DNA of 20,036 bases from Verrucomicrobiota bacterium (GCA_039815375.1 JBCBZJ010000039.1:1-20036), one strand, 5' to 3'. Shown: positions 1,024 to 19,348, counted from the stretch's first letter. Notes: generated by a model from the sequence alone, not told the origin. Numbers and translations are program-made.

Positions 1024-1086
1024 TTGACTTCAACCTGCTTCTGAATTCTTCTTTTGTCTGTTCCTTCGGGAGCTTGATCTTTGACA
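1024..1086 (+). promoter_or_regulatory. Putative promoter and boxB/boxA-like leader of the ncRNA
   Basis: -35 TTGACT at 1024-1029, with only a weak -10 (TCTTCT, 1047-1052). Hairpin GTTCC-TTCG-GGAGC at 1060-1073 is followed by TGATCTTTGACA at 1075-1086 (E. coli boxA is TGCTCTTTAACA). Confidence 0.45.
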
Positions 1087-2115
1087 GAAGCGAAATGCGT
1101 TAAAGCTACGAAAGTGGCCAAGACGCTTTTCAAGATAAATTTCCGGAATCCATGTCCGGGAAAAATGGTCGGGCAGAACTGGCGTTCCCGGCCCCTGTTT
1201 CAGCCGTCTATCGTGGCGGCAGCATGAACTGAAAAGAGATTGTGAAACAGGCACATGTCACCGACTTCCTCGGAAAGGGTCGTTCCTTTCCGTGAAAATA
1301 ACGACCAGGAAGTCGGCGGTTAGCGGAAGCTGCGCAAAGCGTGATCAAAAGCAAAGCGCGCAGCAAAACCAACTGCGAAACCGAGTGACGCTTCCAAGTT
1401 CAAGGTTTATGAACTGGAGAGCGAACACAGTCGGTCAATGAGACCGAAAGTTGCTACTGTGAGCCAGTATGAGGATCCAAGGGACCGGCGGTATGGACAA
1501 AAGAGCCGCTAGATCGCTACGGTGTCGCAACCGAGGCGGGAAAAAGGAACCAGACCTCGTGGATTGAGCGAGCCATGCAGAAGGCATCAGGCGCACTGAT
1601 GGTGACTGCAGAAGCGCAATAAAATCCGAGACTGCGGGAGGAACCGGAAACGGAGCCGTCCGCCTGAGAAAGGAAATGCAACTTGAGGGTTAAGAAACAA
1701 GACCCGTTGCTTGAGGCAAACGATCCCACATGCAGGATGCCGACCTCGAGTGAAAGGACCGATTAAGGAATCTCAGCCATATTCGGACCGTGTCAGGAGA
1801 GCAGCCAACGGCAGTTGGATGTGAATCCGGGCAGAGAAGTTTCACCCAACAAGTTTTTGGTGGCGACACCGGAAACAGGTTCTGCTGCGGGACCGAAACG
1901 ATGTGACAATTGTCCTTGTCAACGACGCAGCGTCGGGGAACTGGCAGCCCACACCGCTCGACGGGTGGAGCGGGCGCCCAATGCCAGTGAATCGGGGAAA
2001 GAGAGCGTGGCTAGCTCCCACTCCTCACCTTCTCATCACTCTTCGGAGCCATGAGAGGGACACTTTAATCGCTGTTATTGCGATTGGCCCGCAGGTTTAT
2101 ACCTGCGGGTTTTTT
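1059..2115 (+). ncRNA. Candidate large (~1.05 kb) highly structured non-coding RNA (possibly MISL-like or new)
   Basis: No credible ORF. About 20 near-contiguous helices with A-rich linkers and G-U pairs on the + strand. cUUCGg loops at 1065-1068 and 2042-2045, GAAA loops at 1110-1113 and 1647-1650. Long-range helix 1520-1532/1859-1871. Ends at a + strand terminator. The 5' end is inferred. Confidence 0.75.
2088..2115 (+). terminator. Rho-independent terminator
   Basis: CCCGCAGGT-TTAT-ACCTGCGGG followed by TTTTTT. The U-tract is present only on the + strand. Confidence 0.9.
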
Positions 2116-2173
2116 GTGCTAAAATCTGGCGTCTCCGGCAACAAACAAGCTTTAAGCAGGCAATGCGATGAAA

Positions 2174-3907
2174 TCATGAGCGAGGGACGAGCCACATCGC
2201 CTGATATGGTTTGACCGAGTAGCCTCGTTTGCCGGGCTTGGTTTCACGCGCGCGCAGGATATCGTGGAAAACACTATATTTTTCGAAATGTCCGTCCGGG
2301 CAGAGCTGCTTCAAGTGTTTTTCCTTCGCAGTGAGATTGAATACACAGTAGATCGTTTGCTCACCATCCAGAGAAGTGCGCTTATGAACAAACAGGCCTG
2401 AATTTACCTTGAAAACCTCTTGAGGTGCATCCGGATGAAAAGCTGGATATTCGGTCCGACGACGCAACATACGCAAGTATCTCGTAAAAACGAGCTTACC
2501 CACTCCCTTATCGAGGTGGGTTTTGAGCTCGGGCAGCTCCCACTTTCGACGGTTTATCGTGCGATTTTGGCCGGTTTCCTGAACACCCTCTTCGTAATTC
2601 TCAGTTCCAAACAAGCTGTGAATATAAATGCCCGGAATACCACGAAGCGAAAGCGCCAAGGCTTGAGAGCAGAGGAATCGAGACGCACCCAACTTGGCAT
2701 CCTCGGGCATAGCGAGTGCCGAATAGTAGGTGATGTTCATCTCATAAGGCTGCTTCGAACCATCCGGCATAGAGCGCCAGTTTACGCGACCACCGGCCTC
2801 TTGCACGTGATCGATCAGCTTGTCGCGTTCGGCTGTAGGCAGGATACCCTCTATCGGACGGACCCCAACCCCATCGTGGCTGGCAGTGAAGTTAAAGAAA
2901 GTGCAACCGGGAGGCGGAGGCTCCAGATTCATTGCCCATTCAGTCAGATACTTGCCGCTTCCGGTTGTAAACGCATGGAGCAAAAGTGGCGGCAGACTGA
3001 ACTGGTAGACCATGTGGGCTTCATCAGCTCTGCCAAAGTAGCTGACATTCTCGTCATGCGGAACATTTGTTTCGGTCAGGATTATCGCACCCGGCGAAAC
3101 AATATCGCAAATATCCCGGAAAAGCTTAACCATTTCATGCGTTTCGGGTAAGTGCACACAGTTAGTGCCAAGCGTTTTCCAGAGGAAAGCGACAGCATCG
3201 AGACGTGCGATACGCATACCCTTCGAAAGATAGAGGAAGAGGATGTCAATGAACTCAAAAAGCACCTCGGGATTCTGCCAGTTCAGGTCGACCTGATCTG
3301 CGGAAAATGTGGTCCATACATGGGCCTCGCCATCTCGGGTCCGAGTCTTCGTAAGAAGTGGACTAGTGCGCGGACGGACGACATCACTGTAATCGCCATC
3401 CGGGTCCATCGGTAGAAAGTAGTGGCGGGCAGGCTCGATACCGGCGACAAAATCCTTAAACCAGCTGCTACGCGACGAGCAATGATTCATCACGATATCG
3501 AACATGAGGTCGAAATCGTGACCTAGCCATTCAACATCGTCCCAATAACCGCAGTCAGGATCCACCTTGCGGTAATCAATCACAGAAAACCCATCATCCG
3601 AGGACCACGGGTAAAACGGCAAAAGATGAATACAACGAATCGCACCCTTCAGGTTCTTGCGGGCAAAGGTGTTCATCGCTTCAAGCGGCCTGCATTCGCC
3701 GGTATTCTTGATCGTATCGGCATATGTAATCAAAACACTGTCGCGCTCGTCCCATTGGTCGACTTCATTGATGACATTCAGACCCACACCGTATCGACCG
3801 ATGATCATAACGAATCGCTCCATCAGCTTCTCCGCCTGACCACCATAGAGGCGCTCGAGACGTTTCCGAATCTTACGCAGCTGCCCTCTTGAGATTGTTT
3901 TAATCAT
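2174..3907 (-). CDS. GH13_18 sugar phosphorylase, glucosylglycerate phosphorylase-like
   Basis: GH13 motifs RLDAVAF (nucleophile), TETN (acid/base), ASHDG and WTTFSADQVDLN. The ETN and YEMN loops resemble glucosylglycerate phosphorylases (YcjM type) rather than sucrose phosphorylase. gpgS is nearby. Confidence 0.85.
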   Translation of the reverse strand: MIKTISRGQLRKIRKRLERLYGGQAEKLMERFVMIIGRYGVGLNVINEVDQWDERDSVLITYADTIKNTGECRPLEAMNTFARKNLKGAIRCIHLLPFYPWSSDDGFSVIDYRKVDPDCGYWDDVEWLGHDFDLMFDIVMNHCSSRSSWFKDFVAGIEPARHYFLPMDPDGDYSDVVRPRTSPLLTKTRTRDGEAHVWTTFSADQVDLNWQNPEVLFEFIDILFLYLSKGMRIARLDAVAFLWKTLGTNCVHLPETHEMVKLFRDICDIVSPGAIILTETNVPHDENVSYFGRADEAHMVYQFSLPPLLLHAFTTGSGKYLTEWAMNLEPPPPGCTFFNFTASHDGVGVRPIEGILPTAERDKLIDHVQEAGGRVNWRSMPDGSKQPYEMNITYYSALAMPEDAKLGASRFLCSQALALSLRGIPGIYIHSLFGTENYEEGVQETGQNRTINRRKWELPELKTHLDKGVGKLVFTRYLRMLRRRTEYPAFHPDAPQEVFKVNSGLFVHKRTSLDGEQTIYCVFNLTAKEKHLKQLCPDGHFEKYSVFHDILRARETKPGKRGYSVKPYQAMWLVPRS

Positions 3908-5200
3908 TTAACTGTTTTCTTGAGTGCTGGTTTGAGATGAAGGCGCATCGCCGGTCAACATGGCGATATGGTGCCGAAGCACACGACGCAGGACGGTGTA
4001 GCTATAGAAACGGCAAGCCACCTTGTAGTTATGGTCTACCATCGATTTTCGATACTTCGCATCTTCGATCACCCGTCGTGTTTCCTCGATCAAGCGAGGT
4101 GTGATGAATCCATCCATCTCGATCAATTTGAAACCCTTTGGCTCGATATCCTGAATATATATCGAATAGCGATTGATAATGACCGGCACTTTGAAGTAAA
4201 TCGCTTCGAGTAGCGCATTGCCGAAGCCCTCGTAGGTGCTCGGGTAAGTCATCAAGTCAGCGTGCTTATAGATATCCCAAAGCGTGTATATCTTGTTACC
4301 CTCATGGTCTACCTGGCGCACCTCGCCAATCCGTGCGGCAAAGAAACGAAGGTCGACGCCTTCCTGTTTCGCAAGCGCTTCCAACTGGTTTTTATAGTCA
4401 TGGCCCTCATCCCCCGCATCGTGTGAGATCACCAGTTTATAACGTGGATCTTTCAACATACCGACCAATTTGATGGCATGTTCAATGCCTTTACGTGGAA
4501 CGATTCGGGTCGGTTGCAGGATCAGAATATCGTCATCGGTTATGCCGATTTCTTTCCTTATATCTGCGGTGTAGGGGTCTGCTTTTGGTGGCGGGTTATC
4601 AAAATCAAAAACGTTCGGCATAAGGGTGGAATTCACACCTTTGCGAAAAGCGAGCTGCTCAAGGGCAGCCTGGTTAATGCCGATATGGTGGAGGTGCGGC
4701 AAACTCGGAGGAAAAGCCATGTCCAGATAGTCCTTTACGCCTCCCACCGAAAATCTGGTGCGCTCCCAATAGAAATCGTGATGGTGCGCGATCGCAGGCA
4801 TCTGCGTCTCAGCCAGAAACTCGGTTACCGCAATTCCGAGAGGAACATGCATCGGAATCGCCAATACATTCTGTGGTATCAGGATATCAATATCATGGCG
4901 GCTCACGAAATCATACAGCGTCTGCTTCAGGTAGTCCGCCATGTTGTTGATCCGCTCGGTAACCTCCGGATTTCGACGCGGGTGCCCCCAGATCCGCTCA
5001 TTGATCCACTCATTCTCGGGATGCCCGAAGTAAGCTTCGGGAACACAAAAACTGCAACCTGGATCCCGGTCGTTGCGACCGCTATACCAGAAGCTGACAT
5101 GACGATCGTCCCAAAGCACCTGAGCCCATTTAGCACTTTCCAATGAGACGCCATCCGAACCGGCAAAACGAGTTGAAATAAACCCTATATTTTTAGACAT
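3908..5200 (-). CDS. GT4 glycosyltransferase, mannosylglucosylglycerate synthase (MggS)-like
   Basis: N-terminal DGVSLE, HHHDFYWER, TRIVPRKGIE and YPSTYEGFGNALLEA (GT-B ExF motif). It abuts the phosphorylase gene (TAA-ATG). The specific function is inferred from context and recalled similarity. Confidence 0.75.
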   Translation of the reverse strand: MSKNIGFISTRFAGSDGVSLESAKWAQVLWDDRHVSFWYSGRNDRDPGCSFCVPEAYFGHPENEWINERIWGHPRRNPEVTERINNMADYLKQTLYDFVSRHDIDILIPQNVLAIPMHVPLGIAVTEFLAETQMPAIAHHHDFYWERTRFSVGGVKDYLDMAFPPSLPHLHHIGINQAALEQLAFRKGVNSTLMPNVFDFDNPPPKADPYTADIRKEIGITDDDILILQPTRIVPRKGIEHAIKLVGMLKDPRYKLVISHDAGDEGHDYKNQLEALAKQEGVDLRFFAARIGEVRQVDHEGNKIYTLWDIYKHADLMTYPSTYEGFGNALLEAIYFKVPVIINRYSIYIQDIEPKGFKLIEMDGFITPRLIEETRRVIEDAKYRKSMVDHNYKVACRFYSYTVLRRVLRHHIAMLTGDAPSSQTSTQENS

Positions 5201-8946: not shown

Positions 8947-9765
8947 ATGAGCCTCTGCGACTTTCAACACTACCTAATCAAGCCCGGCCAAAACAATTGC
9001 CTGGCCGAAGTCGAATCAGACCCGTGGGAAGACCTCCCTGAAACAAAAAGTGAGGCGAAGCACGAGCTCGAGAAGCTCCACGAAAAGCTGGCCGATCTGC
9101 AGCAGCGCTTCTTCGTCGATCGCCGGAAAAAGCTTTTGCTCGTACTCCAGGGCATGGACACAAGTGGTAAAAACGGAACCATTCGGCACGTCTTCAGAGG
9201 CGTGAATCCACAAGGTGTGCATGTCGCTAGTTTTGAAAAGCCTTCAACTCGTGAGCTATCGCACGATTACCTCTGGAGAATCCACAAAAGAACACCATCG
9301 CAGGGCGAAATTGTGATTTTTGACCGGAGCCACTACGAAGACGTCCTCGCCGTTCGTGTCAACGAACTCAAGCCTGAGTCGGTCTGGCGCAAACGCTTCA
9401 GGCACATTCGCGACTTCGAACAAATGCTCTACGATGAAGACACGGTCATACTCAAGTTCTTCCTCCATATTAACCGTGAAACGCAAAAGAAACGGCTTCA
9501 GGAACGCCTAGACATCCCTGCAAAAAACTGGAAGTTTGACCAGTCCGACCTCGTTGCCCGCAGCAAGTGGGAGGACTATACCCGTGCCCACGAAGAGGTC
9601 TTTGTAGAAACCGCATTCAGTCACGCCCCGTGGTATGTCATTCCGGCCAATAAGAAATGGGCCCGCAATCTGCTAGTCGCTCGAATTGTCGTTGCTTGTC
9701 TTGAAGACATGCACCTCAGCTATCCCGACGTTGATTATGATCCTAAACAAATTGTAATCGATTAA
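8947..9765 (+). CDS. ppk2: Polyphosphate kinase 2 family (class III-like polyphosphate:nucleotide phosphotransferase)
   Basis: Walker A LQGMDTSGKNG, HDYLWR, Walker B FDRSHYE, lid NWKF..SDL and APWYVIPANKKW. Confidence 0.92.
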   Translation: MSLCDFQHYLIKPGQNNCLAEVESDPWEDLPETKSEAKHELEKLHEKLADLQQRFFVDRRKKLLLVLQGMDTSGKNGTIRHVFRGVNPQGVHVASFEKPSTRELSHDYLWRIHKRTPSQGEIVIFDRSHYEDVLAVRVNELKPESVWRKRFRHIRDFEQMLYDEDTVILKFFLHINRETQKKRLQERLDIPAKNWKFDQSDLVARSKWEDYTRAHEEVFVETAFSHAPWYVIPANKKWARNLLVARIVVACLEDMHLSYPDVDYDPKQIVID

Positions 9766-9780
9766 GTCACTCACATACAC

Positions 9781-10947
9781 ATGGCCAAAGACCTAAAATC
9801 TATCCTGGAGAGCATACATACGCATCGAGAATCCTTGCATTCCGTGCGAGAGCTGCTTCTCGCCAACGCACTCATGATCGGAGAAATCCCTTCCCCAACC
9901 GGCGGCGAAGCGGACCGTATTACTTTCCTTAGTAACCGCTACACAGAAGACGGGCTACAGAATATTTCTATCGATCAGGCCGGGAATGGGATGGCAATTC
10001 TTCCTGGAAAGAAAGGTAAGAAGAACATCCTCGTCTGTGCACATGCAGATACTGTCTTCAACAAAAAGGTCGATCATGCGATGTCCGTCACGGCCGATGG
10101 CATCATGGGGCCCGGAATCGGCGACAATAGCCTCGGCCTCGCGGCCATTGTTACTCTTCCGGAGATTCTTAGGCGCCTCAATATTAACTTCGATGACAAC
10201 CTCATCTTACTCGGATGCACGGACAGTTTGGGCCGCGGCGATCTCGGGGGCATCCGCTTTTTCCTAAAGAACAACAAACTCCCGATACGGGCAGGCATCA
10301 GCGTTGAGGGTATTCAGCTGGGTCGGCTCAGTTATGCGGCAGTCGGCATGTTACGGGCCGAGATTACGGTGAATGTGCCTTCGGGCTACGACTGGGCCAG
10401 ATTTGGTGCTTCCGGTGCAGTCGCGATCCTGACGAAGGTTGTTCAACGTATCACCGAAATTCCGATCCCCATGCAGCCTCCGACACAAATGATCTTTGGC
10501 TCGATCAACGGTGGCACTTCATTTAGCACGCGTCCCACGAGCGCAAATCTGCGCTTTGAAATCCGCAGTGAGAAGACTGGTATGGTCGACGAGCTGAAAG
10601 AAAAGATCGTCGATATTGTCGAGGAGATCGGAAACAGTTCTGAGACTGAAATCACTTTCTCCTCCGTTGCGGAACGCCAGCCCGGCGGCTTGGAATTCGG
10701 CCATCCACTGGTCAAATCAATGAGAAAGATACTCGACACGCTTGACGTAAAACCGCGCGTCGAACCCAGCGTCGGAGAGCTCAGCCAATTGATTGAAACA
10801 GGTATCCCTAGCGTGACCCTCGGCCTGACAAGGGGCCACAACAAGAACGAATTTAACGAGTCAATCGACATAAGGCCTATCTTCGGTGGATTGGCCCAAC
10901 TGATCGCACTTTTGCAATCGATTGACGGAGGATTTTGCGATGAGTAA
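9781..10947 (+). CDS. M20/M25/M40-family metallopeptidase-fold protein with degenerate active site
   Basis: EIPSPTGGE, CAHADTV, GPGIGDNSLG and a dimerisation domain (GSINGGTS). The EE motif and C-terminal His appear to be replaced. Confidence 0.8.
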   Translation: MAKDLKSILESIHTHRESLHSVRELLLANALMIGEIPSPTGGEADRITFLSNRYTEDGLQNISIDQAGNGMAILPGKKGKKNILVCAHADTVFNKKVDHAMSVTADGIMGPGIGDNSLGLAAIVTLPEILRRLNINFDDNLILLGCTDSLGRGDLGGIRFFLKNNKLPIRAGISVEGIQLGRLSYAAVGMLRAEITVNVPSGYDWARFGASGAVAILTKVVQRITEIPIPMQPPTQMIFGSINGGTSFSTRPTSANLRFEIRSEKTGMVDELKEKIVDIVEEIGNSSETEITFSSVAERQPGGLEFGHPLVKSMRKILDTLDVKPRVEPSVGELSQLIETGIPSVTLGLTRGHNKNEFNESIDIRPIFGGLAQLIALLQSIDGGFCDE

Positions 10948-11923
10948 AAAAATCGATAAATGGTTGGAATCCAACACATTCCACCACGGTGAATTTTGGG
11001 ATATTCTCAAACTCGTTGAGGAAAAGGAGAAGAAGGGGCTCAAGATTTCCCTCTGTATCCCGACCCTCAACGAAGAAAAGACCATCGGTAAGGAGATCGT
11101 GATCTTCAAATCCGAGTTGATGGAGCGCTACCCACTCATCGACGAGTTTGCAGTCATCGATTCAGGCTCCGAGGACAAAACACTCGAAGTGGCTTCCTCT
11201 TTTGGGGCGGACACCTATCTCGCAGCCGACATTCTACCGGAAGTTGGTGATAAGCGTGGAAAAGGAGAAAACCTTTGGAAGGCAATCTATCAATTGAAGG
11301 GCGATATTATCGTCTATGTAGACGCAGATATAAAAAACATTCACCCGCGCTTCGTCACCGGTATCGTTGCACCGCTCATCAACAACGATACGATCAAATA
11401 CTGTAAAGCCTTCTATGACCGTCCAATGGCCTACTCGACCGGAATCCGCTCGAGCGGCGGCGGCCGTGTCACCGAAATCCTGATACGCCCTCTCTTTTCG
11501 CTCTTCTTTCCGGAGCTCACTTCGCTGATCCAGCCGCTATCCGGGGAATTCGCAGTTCGCCGTGATGTCCTTGAGCGCATTCCTTTCCCGATCGGCTATG
11601 GCGTGGAAACTGCACACATCCTTGACGTTTACCAGGAGTGGGGTCTCGAGGCCTTTGCCCAGTGTGACCTCGACCAGCGAATCCACCGCAATCAAAGCAC
11701 CAATGCTCTCGGTAAAATGTCGTTTGGTATTCTTCAGACTTTCCTCAATCGCCTCAAGAGCTATGGAATGGTCGACAAGCTGCCCGAATTGGCGACCTTC
11801 TACCGGCAGTTTCAAGCTGAAGGTAATCGCTACGAGCAGCTGACACGAGAAATTGTTGAATACGAGCGCCCACCGATGGTCACGATACCTGCTTACCAGG
11901 AAAAATTCGGCATCGAGGAATGA
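10940..11923 (+). CDS. gpgS: Glucosyl-3-phosphoglycerate synthase
   Basis: IPTLNEE, DSGSED, GKGENLW, DAD, GGGRVTE, QPLSGE, GYGVE and RIHRNQ motifs. GGAGG RBS lies before the ATG at 10940. Confidence 0.9.
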   Translation: MSKKIDKWLESNTFHHGEFWDILKLVEEKEKKGLKISLCIPTLNEEKTIGKEIVIFKSELMERYPLIDEFAVIDSGSEDKTLEVASSFGADTYLAADILPEVGDKRGKGENLWKAIYQLKGDIIVYVDADIKNIHPRFVTGIVAPLINNDTIKYCKAFYDRPMAYSTGIRSSGGGRVTEILIRPLFSLFFPELTSLIQPLSGEFAVRRDVLERIPFPIGYGVETAHILDVYQEWGLEAFAQCDLDQRIHRNQSTNALGKMSFGILQTFLNRLKSYGMVDKLPELATFYRQFQAEGNRYEQLTREIVEYERPPMVTIPAYQEKFGIEE

Positions 11924-13386
11924 ATGCACCGCTTCGGGTCGCAATCGTTCACTATCACCTGAAACGTGGCGGTGTCACCCGGGTGGTTGAGTCCACCCTG
12001 AACGGATTTGAATCTCTGGATAGTGCCCCGCAATGTGTCGTGCTTGCTGGCGAGATCACAGATGACTTTTCATTTAAGGACTGCGCACGTAGTATCGAAG
12101 GCCTTCACTACTCGAATGCACAGGCAACGACTCCGGATTCGCGATTCCTGTTAGAGCAAATGCGGGCTGCTGCCCGCGAAGTCCTTGGAGGCGAACCCGA
12201 TGTTTGGCATATCCATAATCATTCACTAGGGAAAAACAGCGCGATGCCCGGCATTGTAGCTGAGCTCGCCGAATCCAGTGAAGCTGTCCTCCTCCATATG
12301 CATGATTTTGCAGAGGATGGACGGCCCGACAATTTCCGGTTGAATCAGGAGCGGCTACAGCGTGCTCCCTGCCTCTACCCTAACACGGCAAACGTCCACT
12401 ACGGTGTGATCAACGCACGTGACTTCAGTCTTTTCAGCCAAACAGGCTTGGATGAAGAACGCATCCACCTGCTCGCCAACCCGGTCGAGGCTCAGGAAAC
12501 TCCCGATCAGCAGGATAGCAGACCTATTCTCAATGCCCTCGGAGCGAAGCGCCTCCTCCTTTATCCAGTCCGTGCCGTCCGACGAAAGAACTTCGGTGAA
12601 ATGCTTCTTTGGGCAGCTCTGGCAGACGAGGGAGACGTATTTGCCAGCACTCTCGGCCCGACGAATCAAAACTACACCACCTCATATGAGCAATGGCAGA
12701 CTTTTGCCTTGAAGTATAATCTTCCGGTCCACTTTGGCATTGGAGAGAGCCGTGATTGGTCATTCGAGGCCATCATGCATGCTGCCGATACAATTCTTAG
12801 CACAAGTATCGCGGAAGGCTTTGGCTTAGCATTCCTTGAACCCTGGTTGTTCGGAAAATCCATCGCCGGACGTGACCTGCCCGCGATTACTTCAGACTTT
12901 AAAGCCAATGGCCTTACACTCAGCGGACTTTACGAGAGCATCCCAATCCCAATAGATTGGATCGATCTCCAAGCCCTTGAAGACTCTCTGCACAGCGGCC
13001 TTACTGCTGCTTACGAGACTTATAAGCGGACGCAGCCAGCAAACGCTGTTCAACGTGCGCTCGATGCGATCATGCCAACAGCAGACACGGTTGATTTTGG
13101 CGGGCTCAATGAAACGCTCCAACAACAGGTCATTGAACGCGTTATTGAGGATAACGAAGCCAGAAAACAACTACCGCGTCTTGAGTTCAAAGATTCGGAA
13201 CATGTCATCCGATCTAACGCCAAAATCATCCAAACAGAGTATAATCTTCGAAAATACGCAGCGAATCTGGCTCTGCTCTACAGATCCATCCAACCTGAAA
13301 ACGGCGAGACTACTCCATACATCGACCCCTCCGAAATTCTTGATGGCTTCCTCAAACCCGAACGCTTCCGCCTCCTCCGCACATGA
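11920..13386 (+). CDS. GT4 glycosyltransferase, mannosylglucosyl-3-phosphoglycerate synthase (MggA)-like
   Basis: HYHLKRGGV, HNHSLGKN, HDFAEDGR, YPVRAVRRKN and EGFGLAFLE. ATGA overlap with gpgS. Confidence 0.75.
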   Translation: MNAPLRVAIVHYHLKRGGVTRVVESTLNGFESLDSAPQCVVLAGEITDDFSFKDCARSIEGLHYSNAQATTPDSRFLLEQMRAAAREVLGGEPDVWHIHNHSLGKNSAMPGIVAELAESSEAVLLHMHDFAEDGRPDNFRLNQERLQRAPCLYPNTANVHYGVINARDFSLFSQTGLDEERIHLLANPVEAQETPDQQDSRPILNALGAKRLLLYPVRAVRRKNFGEMLLWAALADEGDVFASTLGPTNQNYTTSYEQWQTFALKYNLPVHFGIGESRDWSFEAIMHAADTILSTSIAEGFGLAFLEPWLFGKSIAGRDLPAITSDFKANGLTLSGLYESIPIPIDWIDLQALEDSLHSGLTAAYETYKRTQPANAVQRALDAIMPTADTVDFGGLNETLQQQVIERVIEDNEARKQLPRLEFKDSEHVIRSNAKIIQTEYNLRKYAANLALLYRSIQPENGETTPYIDPSEILDGFLKPERFRLLRT

Positions 13387-14300
13387 ACGATTTAACCTGG
13401 CTGAAACTCATCACAGACCGTCGCCAAGGCGGACCCGTCACATTACCTGACGATGCAGCACCGCGTTTCGCTAAGCTGGACGGCATCCGCGCAGTCGTCT
13501 TCGACATCTACGGCACTCTGTTTAGTTCCGGCGTAGGCGACATCAGTCTCGCCACCGAAGATAATCGAGATGCCCTTCTTCGCGAAACCGTCATTGCCAA
13601 TGGGATTCACCCCACCGCCCTCGCAGGCAAGCTACGCCTTGACGAACAGCTTCACAGCACCATCCACAGACATCAGGACACACGCCGCATGGAGGGTATA
13701 GAATACCCTGAAGTCGACATTCGTCATGTCTGGCAGGACTTCCTCAATCAGCTTGAGGCACTCAATTTGATGGAACCGTCCGATAATGTCATCATTGAAA
13801 AATTGGTTCTCGACTATGAAACCCGAGTCAATCCGACACAGCCCATGCCTGGTCTACTCGAAGTCCTGGCCGAGCTGCGGGAACGCGGCCTCATCCTCAG
13901 CATCATTTCCAACGCCCAGTTCTACACGCCTTTTCTTTTTGAAGCGTTTCTGGGCAAAACCATTGAAGAACTTGGCTTCTCCGAAGCATGCAACGTCTGG
14001 TCCTATGCTGAACTCGAAGGCAAACCTTCAGAGCGGCTCTATGAATGCGCAGCGGAGCGCCTAGCCTCGATACACCAGATCCAGCCCGAACAGTGCCTCT
14101 ACGTCGGAAATGATATGCGCAACGATATCTGGCCAGCTCAAGCCCTTGGCTTTAAAACCGCCCTCTTTGCCGGCGACCGCCTGTCCCTCCGACGCCGTGA
14201 AGACCATCCGGCCTGCAAGGACCTGCAAGCCGATCTCGAAATCACTGAACTGGCCCAAATTCTGCAAATCATAGACCATCCAGTAGGTGGTGACCTCTAA
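13383..14300 (+). CDS. HAD-family phosphatase, probable MggB-like
   Basis: FDIYGTL (motif I), ISN (II), GKP (III) and YVGNDMRNDI (IV). ATGA overlap with the upstream GT4. Confidence 0.8.
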   Translation: MNDLTWLKLITDRRQGGPVTLPDDAAPRFAKLDGIRAVVFDIYGTLFSSGVGDISLATEDNRDALLRETVIANGIHPTALAGKLRLDEQLHSTIHRHQDTRRMEGIEYPEVDIRHVWQDFLNQLEALNLMEPSDNVIIEKLVLDYETRVNPTQPMPGLLEVLAELRERGLILSIISNAQFYTPFLFEAFLGKTIEELGFSEACNVWSYAELEGKPSERLYECAAERLASIHQIQPEQCLYVGNDMRNDIWPAQALGFKTALFAGDRLSLRRREDHPACKDLQADLEITELAQILQIIDHPVGGDL

Positions 14301-17944: not shown

Positions 17945-19348
17945 TTAAGCGCGGCCACTTGAGAGCTGCTTGATAAGGTAATCAACCCCACGCTTTACGG
18001 TGCCATCCTGCTCCATCATATTCTCTACCTGCTTGCAGGCATGGATGACAGTGCCGTGGTCGCGCCCGCCAAAAGCGTCACCAATCGATTTGAGCGGATC
18101 ACCGGTCAATGTGCGACTGATATACATGGCCACCTGACGCGGAAAAACAATGCCGCTGGTGCGACGGCGACCGACAAGCTCACTTAGACGAATTTGATAA
18201 TAATCAGCTACCTTGTTCTGAATTTGCTCCACGGTGACCTTACTGGCAGCCTCTTCCTGAAGCAGATCGCCCAAGAGGCGCTCAACCGAGTCGAGGTCGA
18301 TCTTTCGGTCAATCAAGGTGCCATAGCCGGCAATGCGGGTGAGTGCACCTTCCATACGACGAACATTGCGGGAAACACGTTCGGCGAGAAAATCCATAAT
18401 CTCGTCGTCGAGCTCTACCTTCATGGCAGCGGCCTTTTTACGAAGGATCGCGACACGTGTCTCGTAATCCGGCGCCTGAATATCAGTCACAAGGCCCCAT
18501 TGAAAACGCGAGACGAGACGATTCTCAAGTTTTTCGATCTCATTGGCCGGACGATCGCTGGCGAGGAAGATTTGGCGACCAGACTCGAAGAGGTCGTTGA
18601 AAGTGTGGAAAAACTCTTCCTGCGTGCTCTCTTTTCCAGAGAGGAAGTGGATATCATCCACTAAAAGTGCATCAACGTTGCGGTAATATTTGCGGAACTT
18701 AGCGAGCTTGTTCTCACGAATCGCATGGATAAATTCGTTGGTAAACTTTTCGGTAGAAACGTAGGCGATGCGAGATGACGGATTGTTCAGAAGCATCTGA
18801 TGGGCAACCGCATGCATGAGGTGAGTTTTACCCAGACCGGTCTCACCAAAAACGAAAAGCGGGTTGTAGGCGCGGCCTGGTGCGTTCGCCACGGCAATGG
18901 AGGCCGCGTGTGCAAGCTGGTTTCCGGAACCAACAACAAAGTTCTCGAATGTATTGCTCGGGTTAAGAAGGGATCGGTGCGTTTTGACTGACTCCTTTGC
19001 TGCAGCGCCCCGATCGCTCTGCCTTGAAGCAGTATCGACACGGTTCTTGGACGAACTCTCACCTTCTCGATCACTTTCGGTTGGTAATTTGCGCTCCATC
19101 ACCTCGATGGAGACCTCTACCGAGGAACCGGCAAACCCTCGTGCCTGCTGAATAATGACATCGAGAAAATTGTTCTCGATCCAGATTGCATTAAACTCAG
19201 ATGCGGCTTCCAGAACGATCTTTGAATCACTTTCGTGCGAGCACACGAGATCGCTGAACCACATATCGTAGATGTCTGCCGGAAAGAGGCTTTTGAGTTG
19301 TTGATTAGTGCTTTCCCAAAGAGTTAAAGCGGACGGTTCTGTGGGCAT
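17945..19348 (-). CDS. dnaA: Chromosomal replication initiator DnaA
   Basis: [48 protein letters not shown] and domain [14 protein letters not shown]. Confidence 0.98.

Follow-up and report, generated by a model that had tools for sequence, protein, structure and literature searches.

The window analysed here, a stretch of 20,036 nucleotides from a Verrucomicrobiota bacterium (source genome G000), carries on its + strand what can virtually without doubt be regarded as a full-length member of the known MISL RNA family rather than a new class of RNA. Positions 1135-2018 (+), the core of the RNA as delimited by Rfam, match the covariance model RF03079 (listed in Rfam as 'Gene; sRNA') with 309.8 bits against a gathering score of 274.6 and an E value of 4.4e-92, and the 884 nt of the match cover model positions 1-751 of 751, end to end and untruncated. 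It is because Rfam confirms the match that we speak of a known class, and an earlier note on this DNA, which had guessed at MISL from the sequence alone and proposed an Rfam search to settle the matter, was right in its guess; GOLLD, ROOL, OLE, introns, RNase P and ribozymes gave no match in Rfam even at E <= 10. Its description of the locus as a large, structured, stand-alone RNA and not a riboswitch leader is likewise upheld. The next gene is convergent, as it had stated (2174-3907, -), and the absence of a credible ORF is borne out, the sole frame of at least 80 aa being a 103-aa GTG frame at 1903-2214 that lacks a conserved counterpart, and ORF length in the homologs showing no excess over shuffles (median 89 vs 77.5 aa). 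MISL was reportedly first described by Weinberg et al. in 2017, its host range being the Verrucomicrobiota. The name 'MISL' is absent from the main text of PMC5737381 and from a 2026 preprint on noncoding families, Ribonanza holds only the chemical mapping of a MISL window, and our search of an incomplete literature library found no work on the function, the promoter or a 5' extension of MISL. The gene itself is catalogued, and the use of the present analysis lies in making an orphan RNA family testable, where DnaA as a putative regulator and boxA with its Nus factors as a putative mode of transcription would say when a phenotype should be sought. The model put forward below, in which MISL would be a DnaA-switched, Nus-assisted, compact scaffold RNA, has as a whole about an even chance of being correct.

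For the comparative analysis 36 loci from Rfam searches were combined with 123 from motif scans, giving 108 with both ends, of which 11 were dropped for a missing anchor motif; 95 of the 97 left had a boxA, and these were thinned at 85% identity to a set of 60 sequences. All 60 homologs consequently carry boxA, since the set was built from boxA-bearing loci, and it should also be mentioned that the motif expressions were tuned on the same loci as were counted. Seven further places examined afterwards had boxA in four cases, a variant in one and none in two, both of the latter in G140. Covariation was evaluated by a G-test with background correction and eight tree-based nulls on a sequence-only MAFFT alignment of the 60.

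The element is clearly more structured than its composition would predict, since positions 1100-2090 fold at -378.9 kcal/mol (z = -5.15) and none of 20 dinucleotide shuffles, a control named in the earlier note, folds as well; z ranges from -0.7 to -2.9 in seven 150-nt sub-windows inside the element and from +0.8 to -1.6 in five flanking windows. Fourteen of the 15 helices that had been proposed by eye pair as written (at least 75% of tested pairs, and eight of them fully), the exception being 1885-1931, where 2 of 8 pairs form in the register proposed and 7 of 8 if the strands are moved slightly, the region really being a pseudoknot plus local stems. The long-range helix 1520-1532/1859-1871 has furthermore to be rejected, for although it is complementary here (12 of 13), its pairs are canonical in 16-79% of the homologs and do not covary, exchange with the nearest relative gives 21 better and 26 worse, and it competes with a covarying local hairpin at 1857-1872. 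The multibranch domain of ~330 nt that it was thought to enclose is likewise unsupported. The homologs do covary elsewhere: E <= 0.5 is reached by 33 pairs, of which 31 have a canonical share of 80% or more, and most of the 33 coincide with stems of the Rfam model.

Six long-range or pseudoknot pairings, namely a boxA helix and the helices PK1-PK5, are however missing from the structure line of RF03079, and these may perhaps already be present in the original MISL alignment. The boxA helix (1082-1086 with 1256-1260, +) has its 5' strand, which is the 3' half of boxA, upstream of the Rfam model; its pair 1085-1257 scores above every null value and is retained with matching letters in three held-out loci, and the nearest-relative swap gives 52 better and 2 worse. 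Support for the five further helices varies among the 60 homologs. In PK1 (1280-1284 with 1300-1304, +) the pair 1284-1300 is above all nulls and 1283-1301 reaches E 0.38 (swap 31/17, better/worse throughout), and in PK2 (1664-1669 with 1771-1776, +) the pair 1668-1772 reaches E 0.25 and the six pairs are 85-100% canonical (swap 38/19). Significant single pairs are confined to these three helices. PK3 (1883-1888 with 1927-1932, +) instead has five pairs that are 100% canonical (swap 45/14), PK4 (1179-1183 with 1463-1467, +) has at least five contiguous pairs in 59/60 sequences (permutation p = 0.0002; swap 36/20), and the long-range helix PK5 (1448-1454 with 1677-1683, +) has at least five contiguous pairs in 54/60 despite 50 distinct 5' strands among the 60 sequences (swap 36/11). 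Partner permutation gives p 0.0002 for all six, but this test ignores kinship and the rejected 1520/1871 helix reaches p 0.003 as well, the nearest-relative swap being the stricter of the two. The list of pairings should be of service to structure work, and MISL is predicted by the alignment to be a compact, knotted RNA, more intricate than the catalogue model. Likenesses to group II domain V, tRNA acceptor ends, T-loops and kink-turns were also weighed by eye and are unsupported, an apparent T-loop at 1664-1669 being a pseudoknot strand.

Conservation is strongest in the block 1675-1722 (+), around TAAGA..AGACCCGT..GGC.AACG in the profile of the 60 sequences, and overall 95 alignment columns are at least 97% invariant. 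We infer that this block is a candidate functional centre. Towards the 3' side the conserved RNA likely ends at a hairpin whose loop reads GUGGC(G/U)A and behind which there is a pyrimidine tract (1993-2027, +), as seen from the 3' ends of the 60 homologs and from covariation, the hairpin pair 2004-2016 lying above all nulls.

MISL could alternatively belong to an undescribed type of ribozyme or ligand-binding RNA, whose active centre would be the block 1675-1722. This notion is in agreement with the size of MISL, its six long-range helices and its invariant unpaired nucleotides, with the statement in PMC5737381 that large complex bacterial RNAs are often catalytic, and with the persistence in G140 of two copies of a version comprising the 3' two-thirds. 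It is nonetheless an unlikely reading, given the lack of an intron, RNase P or ribozyme match mentioned above and the fact that neither the genome nor rRNA shows complementarity of the kind expected between guide and substrate. G000 furthermore has separate genes for RNase P RNA and tmRNA, for which reason MISL was also discarded as a replacement of either; in G028 and G011 the search for tmRNA found none. The search for antisense targets in genome and rRNA returned chance-level matches only, boxA apart, and the best match between MISL and an rrn operon is indeed boxA in G047 (13/13) and G070 (12/12), and is not boxA in G146 or G127.

Help from Nus factors in making the RNA is suggested by the 5' end. 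The conserved RNA begins ~60 nt upstream of the Rfam model, at an rRNA-type boxA (GATCTTTGACAG, 1076-1087, +) that is found in 95/97 anchored loci and in 0/200 control windows, and constructs starting at the Rfam boundary would hence lose a conserved helix. The boxA word is common to the 16S leader and the spacer in 4/4 rrn operons of relatives; no 16S gene is assembled in G000. The word recurs in 3/4 tmRNA leaders, with a variant in the fourth, and in 0/5 RNase P leaders. Among 21 boxA matches in G000 only two are intergenic, one before MISL and one before tmRNA (the tmRNA gene with its rrn-type boxA leader is at G000:C21:31333; further examples are L260-L262). Immediately before the MISL boxA, in a boxB-like position, the sequence forms a small UUCG hairpin (1060-1073, +), and similar hairpins precede boxA in the rrn leaders of relatives. 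The arrangement of a hairpin and then boxA behind a promoter is thus the same as in the antitermination signal of rrn leaders (boxB-boxA, acting through NusB-S10, NusA, NusG and SuhB), and both NusB and Rho are encoded here. According to PMC13753749, the Bacillus subtilis boxA AUGAUCUUUGAAA, whose sequence is nearly that of the MISL boxA, binds NusB and follows a small hairpin, and the E. coli boxA is described in PMC10250234 as having a modest quality-control role in rRNA folding. In contrast to the rrn leader, the boxA of MISL serves a non-ribosomal RNA and stays inside the conserved fold, and since the boxA word doubles as a helix strand, structure alone could conserve part of it. On balance it is nevertheless likely, as far as sequence comparison goes, that MISL makes use of boxA and the Nus factors.

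The earlier note had also credited the region with a promoter-like site of its own, and this holds in so far as a likely sigma-70-type promoter is present, but not at the position called by the promoter scanner (952-979), which is inside the array of boxes discussed below. The spacing in homologs instead favours a -35 element TTGACT at 1024-1029 with a weak -10 element at about 1047-1052 (+), which the scanner missed; the distance from this -35 to boxA is the same in homologs, a -35 of the form TTG(A/C)(C/T) occurs in 28/60 loci vs 11/60 control windows, and transcription would start at about 1057-1060. The + strand terminator noted previously is present at 2086-2111, and the intrinsic terminator with its 11-bp stem and T run is annotated over 2086-2116 (+); a terminator-like hairpin follows MISL in 38/57 homologs vs one control hit.

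Upstream of the promoter lie four direct-repeat DnaA-type boxes (892-987, +), with TTATTCACA at 892, 914 and 957 and TTGTTCACA at 979, and this array is the densest cluster of strict boxes in the genome (four in 300 nt), whereas of the genome's own 779 promoter-like windows 37 have at least one box, one has two and none has three. Boxes are equally a feature of MISL promoters in general, at least one being found within 300 nt in 55/60 and at least two in 48/60, against 0/58 and 1/54 in flanking controls, whereas the rrn promoters examined here lack strict boxes (4/4). We take the word to be the DnaA box of this lineage because it occurs at 27/27 dnaA promoters, where TTATTCACA accounts for 33/45 boxes, and beside trio repeats upstream of dnaN; TTATTCACA is also the dominant variant at MISL promoters. 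The Opitutales dnaA promoter, with its presumed autoregulation by DnaA, in fact shares more than the word with MISL, for a tandem pair of reversed boxes 7-8 nt before the -35 is found at 25/27 dnaA promoters and is repeated, at a fixed place, in 13/60 MISL promoters and in none of the controls. Box geometry varies among lineages, and the copy studied here differs from the dnaA promoter in having four forward boxes plus IHF-like sites instead. DnaA itself (window 17945-19348, -; L042-L071) reads GGRDHGTVI in the DNA-binding helix in 27/27 proteins, with a glycine in place of the usual DNA-binding motif DHTT, and this variant may perhaps be tied to the preference for TTATTCACA.

Two putative IHF-like sites accompany the boxes, both on the + strand and judged by the IHF consensus. 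The site between boxes 2 and 3 (927-950) follows an extended pattern that is met with at this place in 4/60 loci, and that between box 4 and the -35 (986-1010) contains a strict consensus match at 998-1010; at the latter place the extended pattern is found in 13/60 loci, limited to some Opitutales, and the strict form in 8/60 vs 0/60 controls. IHF-like sites total 23 as compared to a shuffle mean of 1.5 and a maximum of 6, and are confined to 15/60 loci. None of the three HU/IHF genes reaches the IHF cut-off. Taken together, the boxes make control of MISL by DnaA quite likely, and should it be true, MISL would connect a giant structured RNA with the control of replication, which in this phylum is barely described.

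As a point against such control, pairs of boxes are also found at unrelated promoters, namely those of lexA and of sigma-factor-like and anti-anti-sigma-like genes (named from their translations), and dense clusters elsewhere (L319, L315, L318, L303 and L324, located before a sigma-factor-like gene of two families, an anti-anti-sigma-like gene and others) hint that the DnaA regulon may be wider. A search with a MISL profile downstream of 19 box clusters other than those at known MISL genes gave no match. Tandem boxes directly before the lexA -35, beside a LexA-like site (G000:C2:32079-32124; L321), both here and in G008, make an input of DnaA to the SOS regulator possible.

That the array might chiefly be a sink or inactivation site for DnaA, with the RNA gene or nearby transcription merely timing it, has to be considered in view of E. 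coli datA, which PMC10950094 describes as lying remote from the origin and downstream of a tRNA gene, with several DnaA boxes grouped together and an IHF site. The MISL array resembles datA in its boxes and in its position behind a tRNA gene, and in this copy a candidate IHF-like site lies between boxes; a sink would agree with its unequalled box density, with the number of strict boxes at MISL exceeding that upstream of dnaN in 18/21 genomes (equal in three), and with Hda not being found in 5/5 genomes. However, the array is unlike datA in being tied to a promoter and to a conserved RNA with which it vanishes, and the boxes keep fixed distances from that promoter. The inter-box IHF-like site, a degenerate pattern, is furthermore restricted to the 4/60 loci given above, tRNA adjacency within 1.5 kb to 3/13 loci, and the MISL-less G002 likewise lacks Hda, while the 95 invariant columns of the RNA are left unexplained. 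We consequently regard such a function as improbable. Complementarity between Hda and MISL had been entertained separately and was dropped, Hda being not found irrespective of whether the five genomes have MISL.

The boxes could alternatively be bound by LexA or another regulator instead of DnaA, which would make the RNA a DNA-damage transcript. LexA comes into consideration since boxes also cluster at lexA, the second-densest cluster being at its promoter, and since one of the reversed box variants shares sequence with the GAACA half-site that is seen at both lexA and recA. The LexA palindrome is TGTTC-N4-GAACA, and with up to one mismatch it is found in only 2/60 MISL promoters, and the variant dominating there is the one known from dnaA promoters and from beside the origin trios, which renders this explanation very improbable.

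Returning to the proposed DnaA-switched, Nus-assisted MISL, we would suggest that the locus likely yields one stand-alone RNA of ~1.05 kb from a promoter that is likely switched by DnaA, and that this RNA, likely aided by the boxA/Nus machinery, would take up its predicted compact, pseudoknotted fold and serve as a structural scaffold. DnaA would fill the tandem boxes and an IHF-like protein would bend the DNA towards the polymerase, activation being somewhat favoured over repression because all boxes are upstream of the -35 and because promoters with boxes immediately adjoining the -35 have a poor -35. NusB-S10 could next load on boxA, shield the untranslated transcript from Rho and keep hold of its 5' end up to the moment of pairing with 1256-1260, whereupon the RNA would end at the intrinsic terminator and be stable. 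As the weakest step of the proposal, the RNA may act in trans by way of its shape at times of high free DnaA, possibly in oligomeric form, and would be helpful but dispensable; action by shape is suggested by the lack of an ORF, of an antisense target and of a cis gene. The parts point to a stable RNA that may be made in the manner of rRNA and tmRNA but gated by DnaA. One may go further and speculate that DnaA turns MISL on via a copy of its own promoter module, that Nus factors fold the RNA like rRNA, and that in these bacteria without Hda it exerts feedback on replication or growth, perhaps in the form of an RNA-only assembly, but so specific a scheme is doubtful. The thought of an assembly derives from GOLLD and ROOL, which form RNA-only nanocages free of protein (bioRxiv 2024.12.08.627333), and which are, like MISL, large and pseudoknotted, without an assigned function or protein partner and sometimes near tRNA genes. 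MISL is on the other hand chromosomal, mostly vertically inherited and without phage association, and the cages are an analogy only.

The distribution of MISL is patchy, and by Rfam search it was found once in G000, in 13/61 relatives, in 0/8 genomes of the genus, in 3/36 of the family, in 42/151 of the order and in 9/151 of the phylum (counts include G000); a DNA search in the eight genus relatives found no hidden copy. Since it was not found in 48/61 relatives, including 8/8 of the genus, MISL is no core part of the replication machinery. Within the 61 relatives, genomes with MISL are larger than those without (median 3.6 vs 2.2 Mb, kin not being independent). The core motif has matches in at least 120 GTDB contigs, and 76/80 among the matches listed are titled Verrucomicrobiota; among the copies nearest to this one is a record from Puniceicoccaceae (L181), in line with a Verrucomicrobiota host. 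Three motif matches (L149, L151 and L191) are in records titled outside the phylum, likely owing to misbinning or mislabelling since the tree places L151 among copies from Verrucomicrobiota. In 21 genomes the MISL tree follows that of DnaA plus DnaN (Mantel r 0.81, 9/11 supported splits) with one likely transfer, in G130, and as judged by this congruence inheritance is mostly vertical, with frequent loss. The RNA and its array moreover come and go together, for at the syntenic site after tRNA-Leu both are missing in G002, of the same genus, and in G011, and in G154 and G124 both are duplicated with 98-99% identity. Three genomes of one family have two copies (98-99.7% identical) in different flanks, and in the two of G140 (L344:4126-4809 and L345, 99.7% identical) the 5' third is missing along with boxA and strict boxes, core and terminator being kept. 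These two speak against the proposed model and are possibly a natural minimal form.

The neighbours of MISL are varied housekeeping genes, and among 37 ORFs scanned of 114 called no conserved neighbour or partner gene was found. The HrpB helicase was considered as a partner since it adjoins MISL in one family, yet 48/61 genomes have it, most of them without MISL, and a search of the MISL-bearing G042 and G048 did not find it, and the idea was dropped. Within the window, 2174-5200 and 10922-14300 contain glucosylglycerate-metabolism-like genes, including a sucrose-phosphorylase-like GH13 enzyme, a glycosyltransferase and a HAD hydrolase, and of these glucosylglycerate-type genes the glucosyl-3-phosphoglycerate synthase is above its family cut-off.

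In G000 and G028 MISL is located 3' of tRNA-Leu(TAG), and this region looks like an integration hotspot because different genes occupy it in genus relatives. MISL could hence be viewed as a decayed intron or insertion sequence, or as phage cargo, and the patchy distribution and the likely transfer in G130 would fit. Intron or insertion sequence decay had in fact been foreseen by the earlier note as an outcome contrary to its view, but no intron domains, interrupted host gene or mobile ORF are found at the locus, and Rfam gives no intron match. Moreover, the structure is conserved across orders, the neighbours elsewhere are varied housekeeping genes, the tRNA 3' end is not repeated in the genome, and neither the viral collection, in which three small contigs (2.2-2.4 kb) match the core motif, nor the neighbour genes revealed a phage or prophage association. 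The mobile origin is thus largely contradicted by covariation and by the mostly vertical tree, and we consider it scarcely credible. As to the surroundings of the tRNA gene, positions 420-681 of the window hold a tandem duplication of ~120 bp upstream of tRNA-Leu(TAG), each unit having a promoter-like TTGACA and ending in the first 13-15 bases of the tRNA, and the same array is present in genus relatives (L237, L238 and L239). Positions 1-130 encode a tail resembling a tyrosine recombinase, and a 99% copy of the first 277 bases is found where contig C30 of G000 ends. Elsewhere in this genome (G000:C40:54655-56468) 11 tRNA genes are packed into 1.8 kb, their isoacceptors duplicated elsewhere, and look like a mobile tRNA array.

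Hardly any credence at all can be given to the idea that replication starts at the array and that the RNA is a primer linked to the origin or a transcript that activates it. Boxes are indeed clustered there together with IHF-like sites, and dnaA is only 16 kb away in this genome, but this is offset by the absence of a GC-skew switch at MISL or dnaA in the closed genomes G127 and G047, by trio-like TAATAA(T/G)A repeats in 0/60 MISL promoters vs 15/27 dnaN-upstream regions, and by a distance from MISL to dnaN of 68 kb to 1.78 Mb in eight genomes. Of the link to replication that the earlier note drew from the DnaA/IHF array, a conserved array lost together with the RNA consequently stands and a direct origin role does not, there being neither a skew switch nor trios at MISL. 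That MISL is always origin-proximal, as its distance from dnaA had suggested, was likewise dropped because GC skew and dnaN place the origin elsewhere; here the skew is mostly negative to the right of MISL, and the cumulative minimum of G000 is at dnaN on contig C59. Boxes upstream of dnaN are mostly degenerate, with a strict box in 15/27, and in two genomes of one family (L278 and L285) the dnaN-upstream region is without the box and trio layout. DnaA-trios beside a box are the layout of a basal unwinding system, as set out in PMC8287927. With its box, its trios and the skew minimum, the region upstream of dnaN (G000:C59 ~9750-10000; L270-L296) is apparently the Opitutales origin, far from dnaA.
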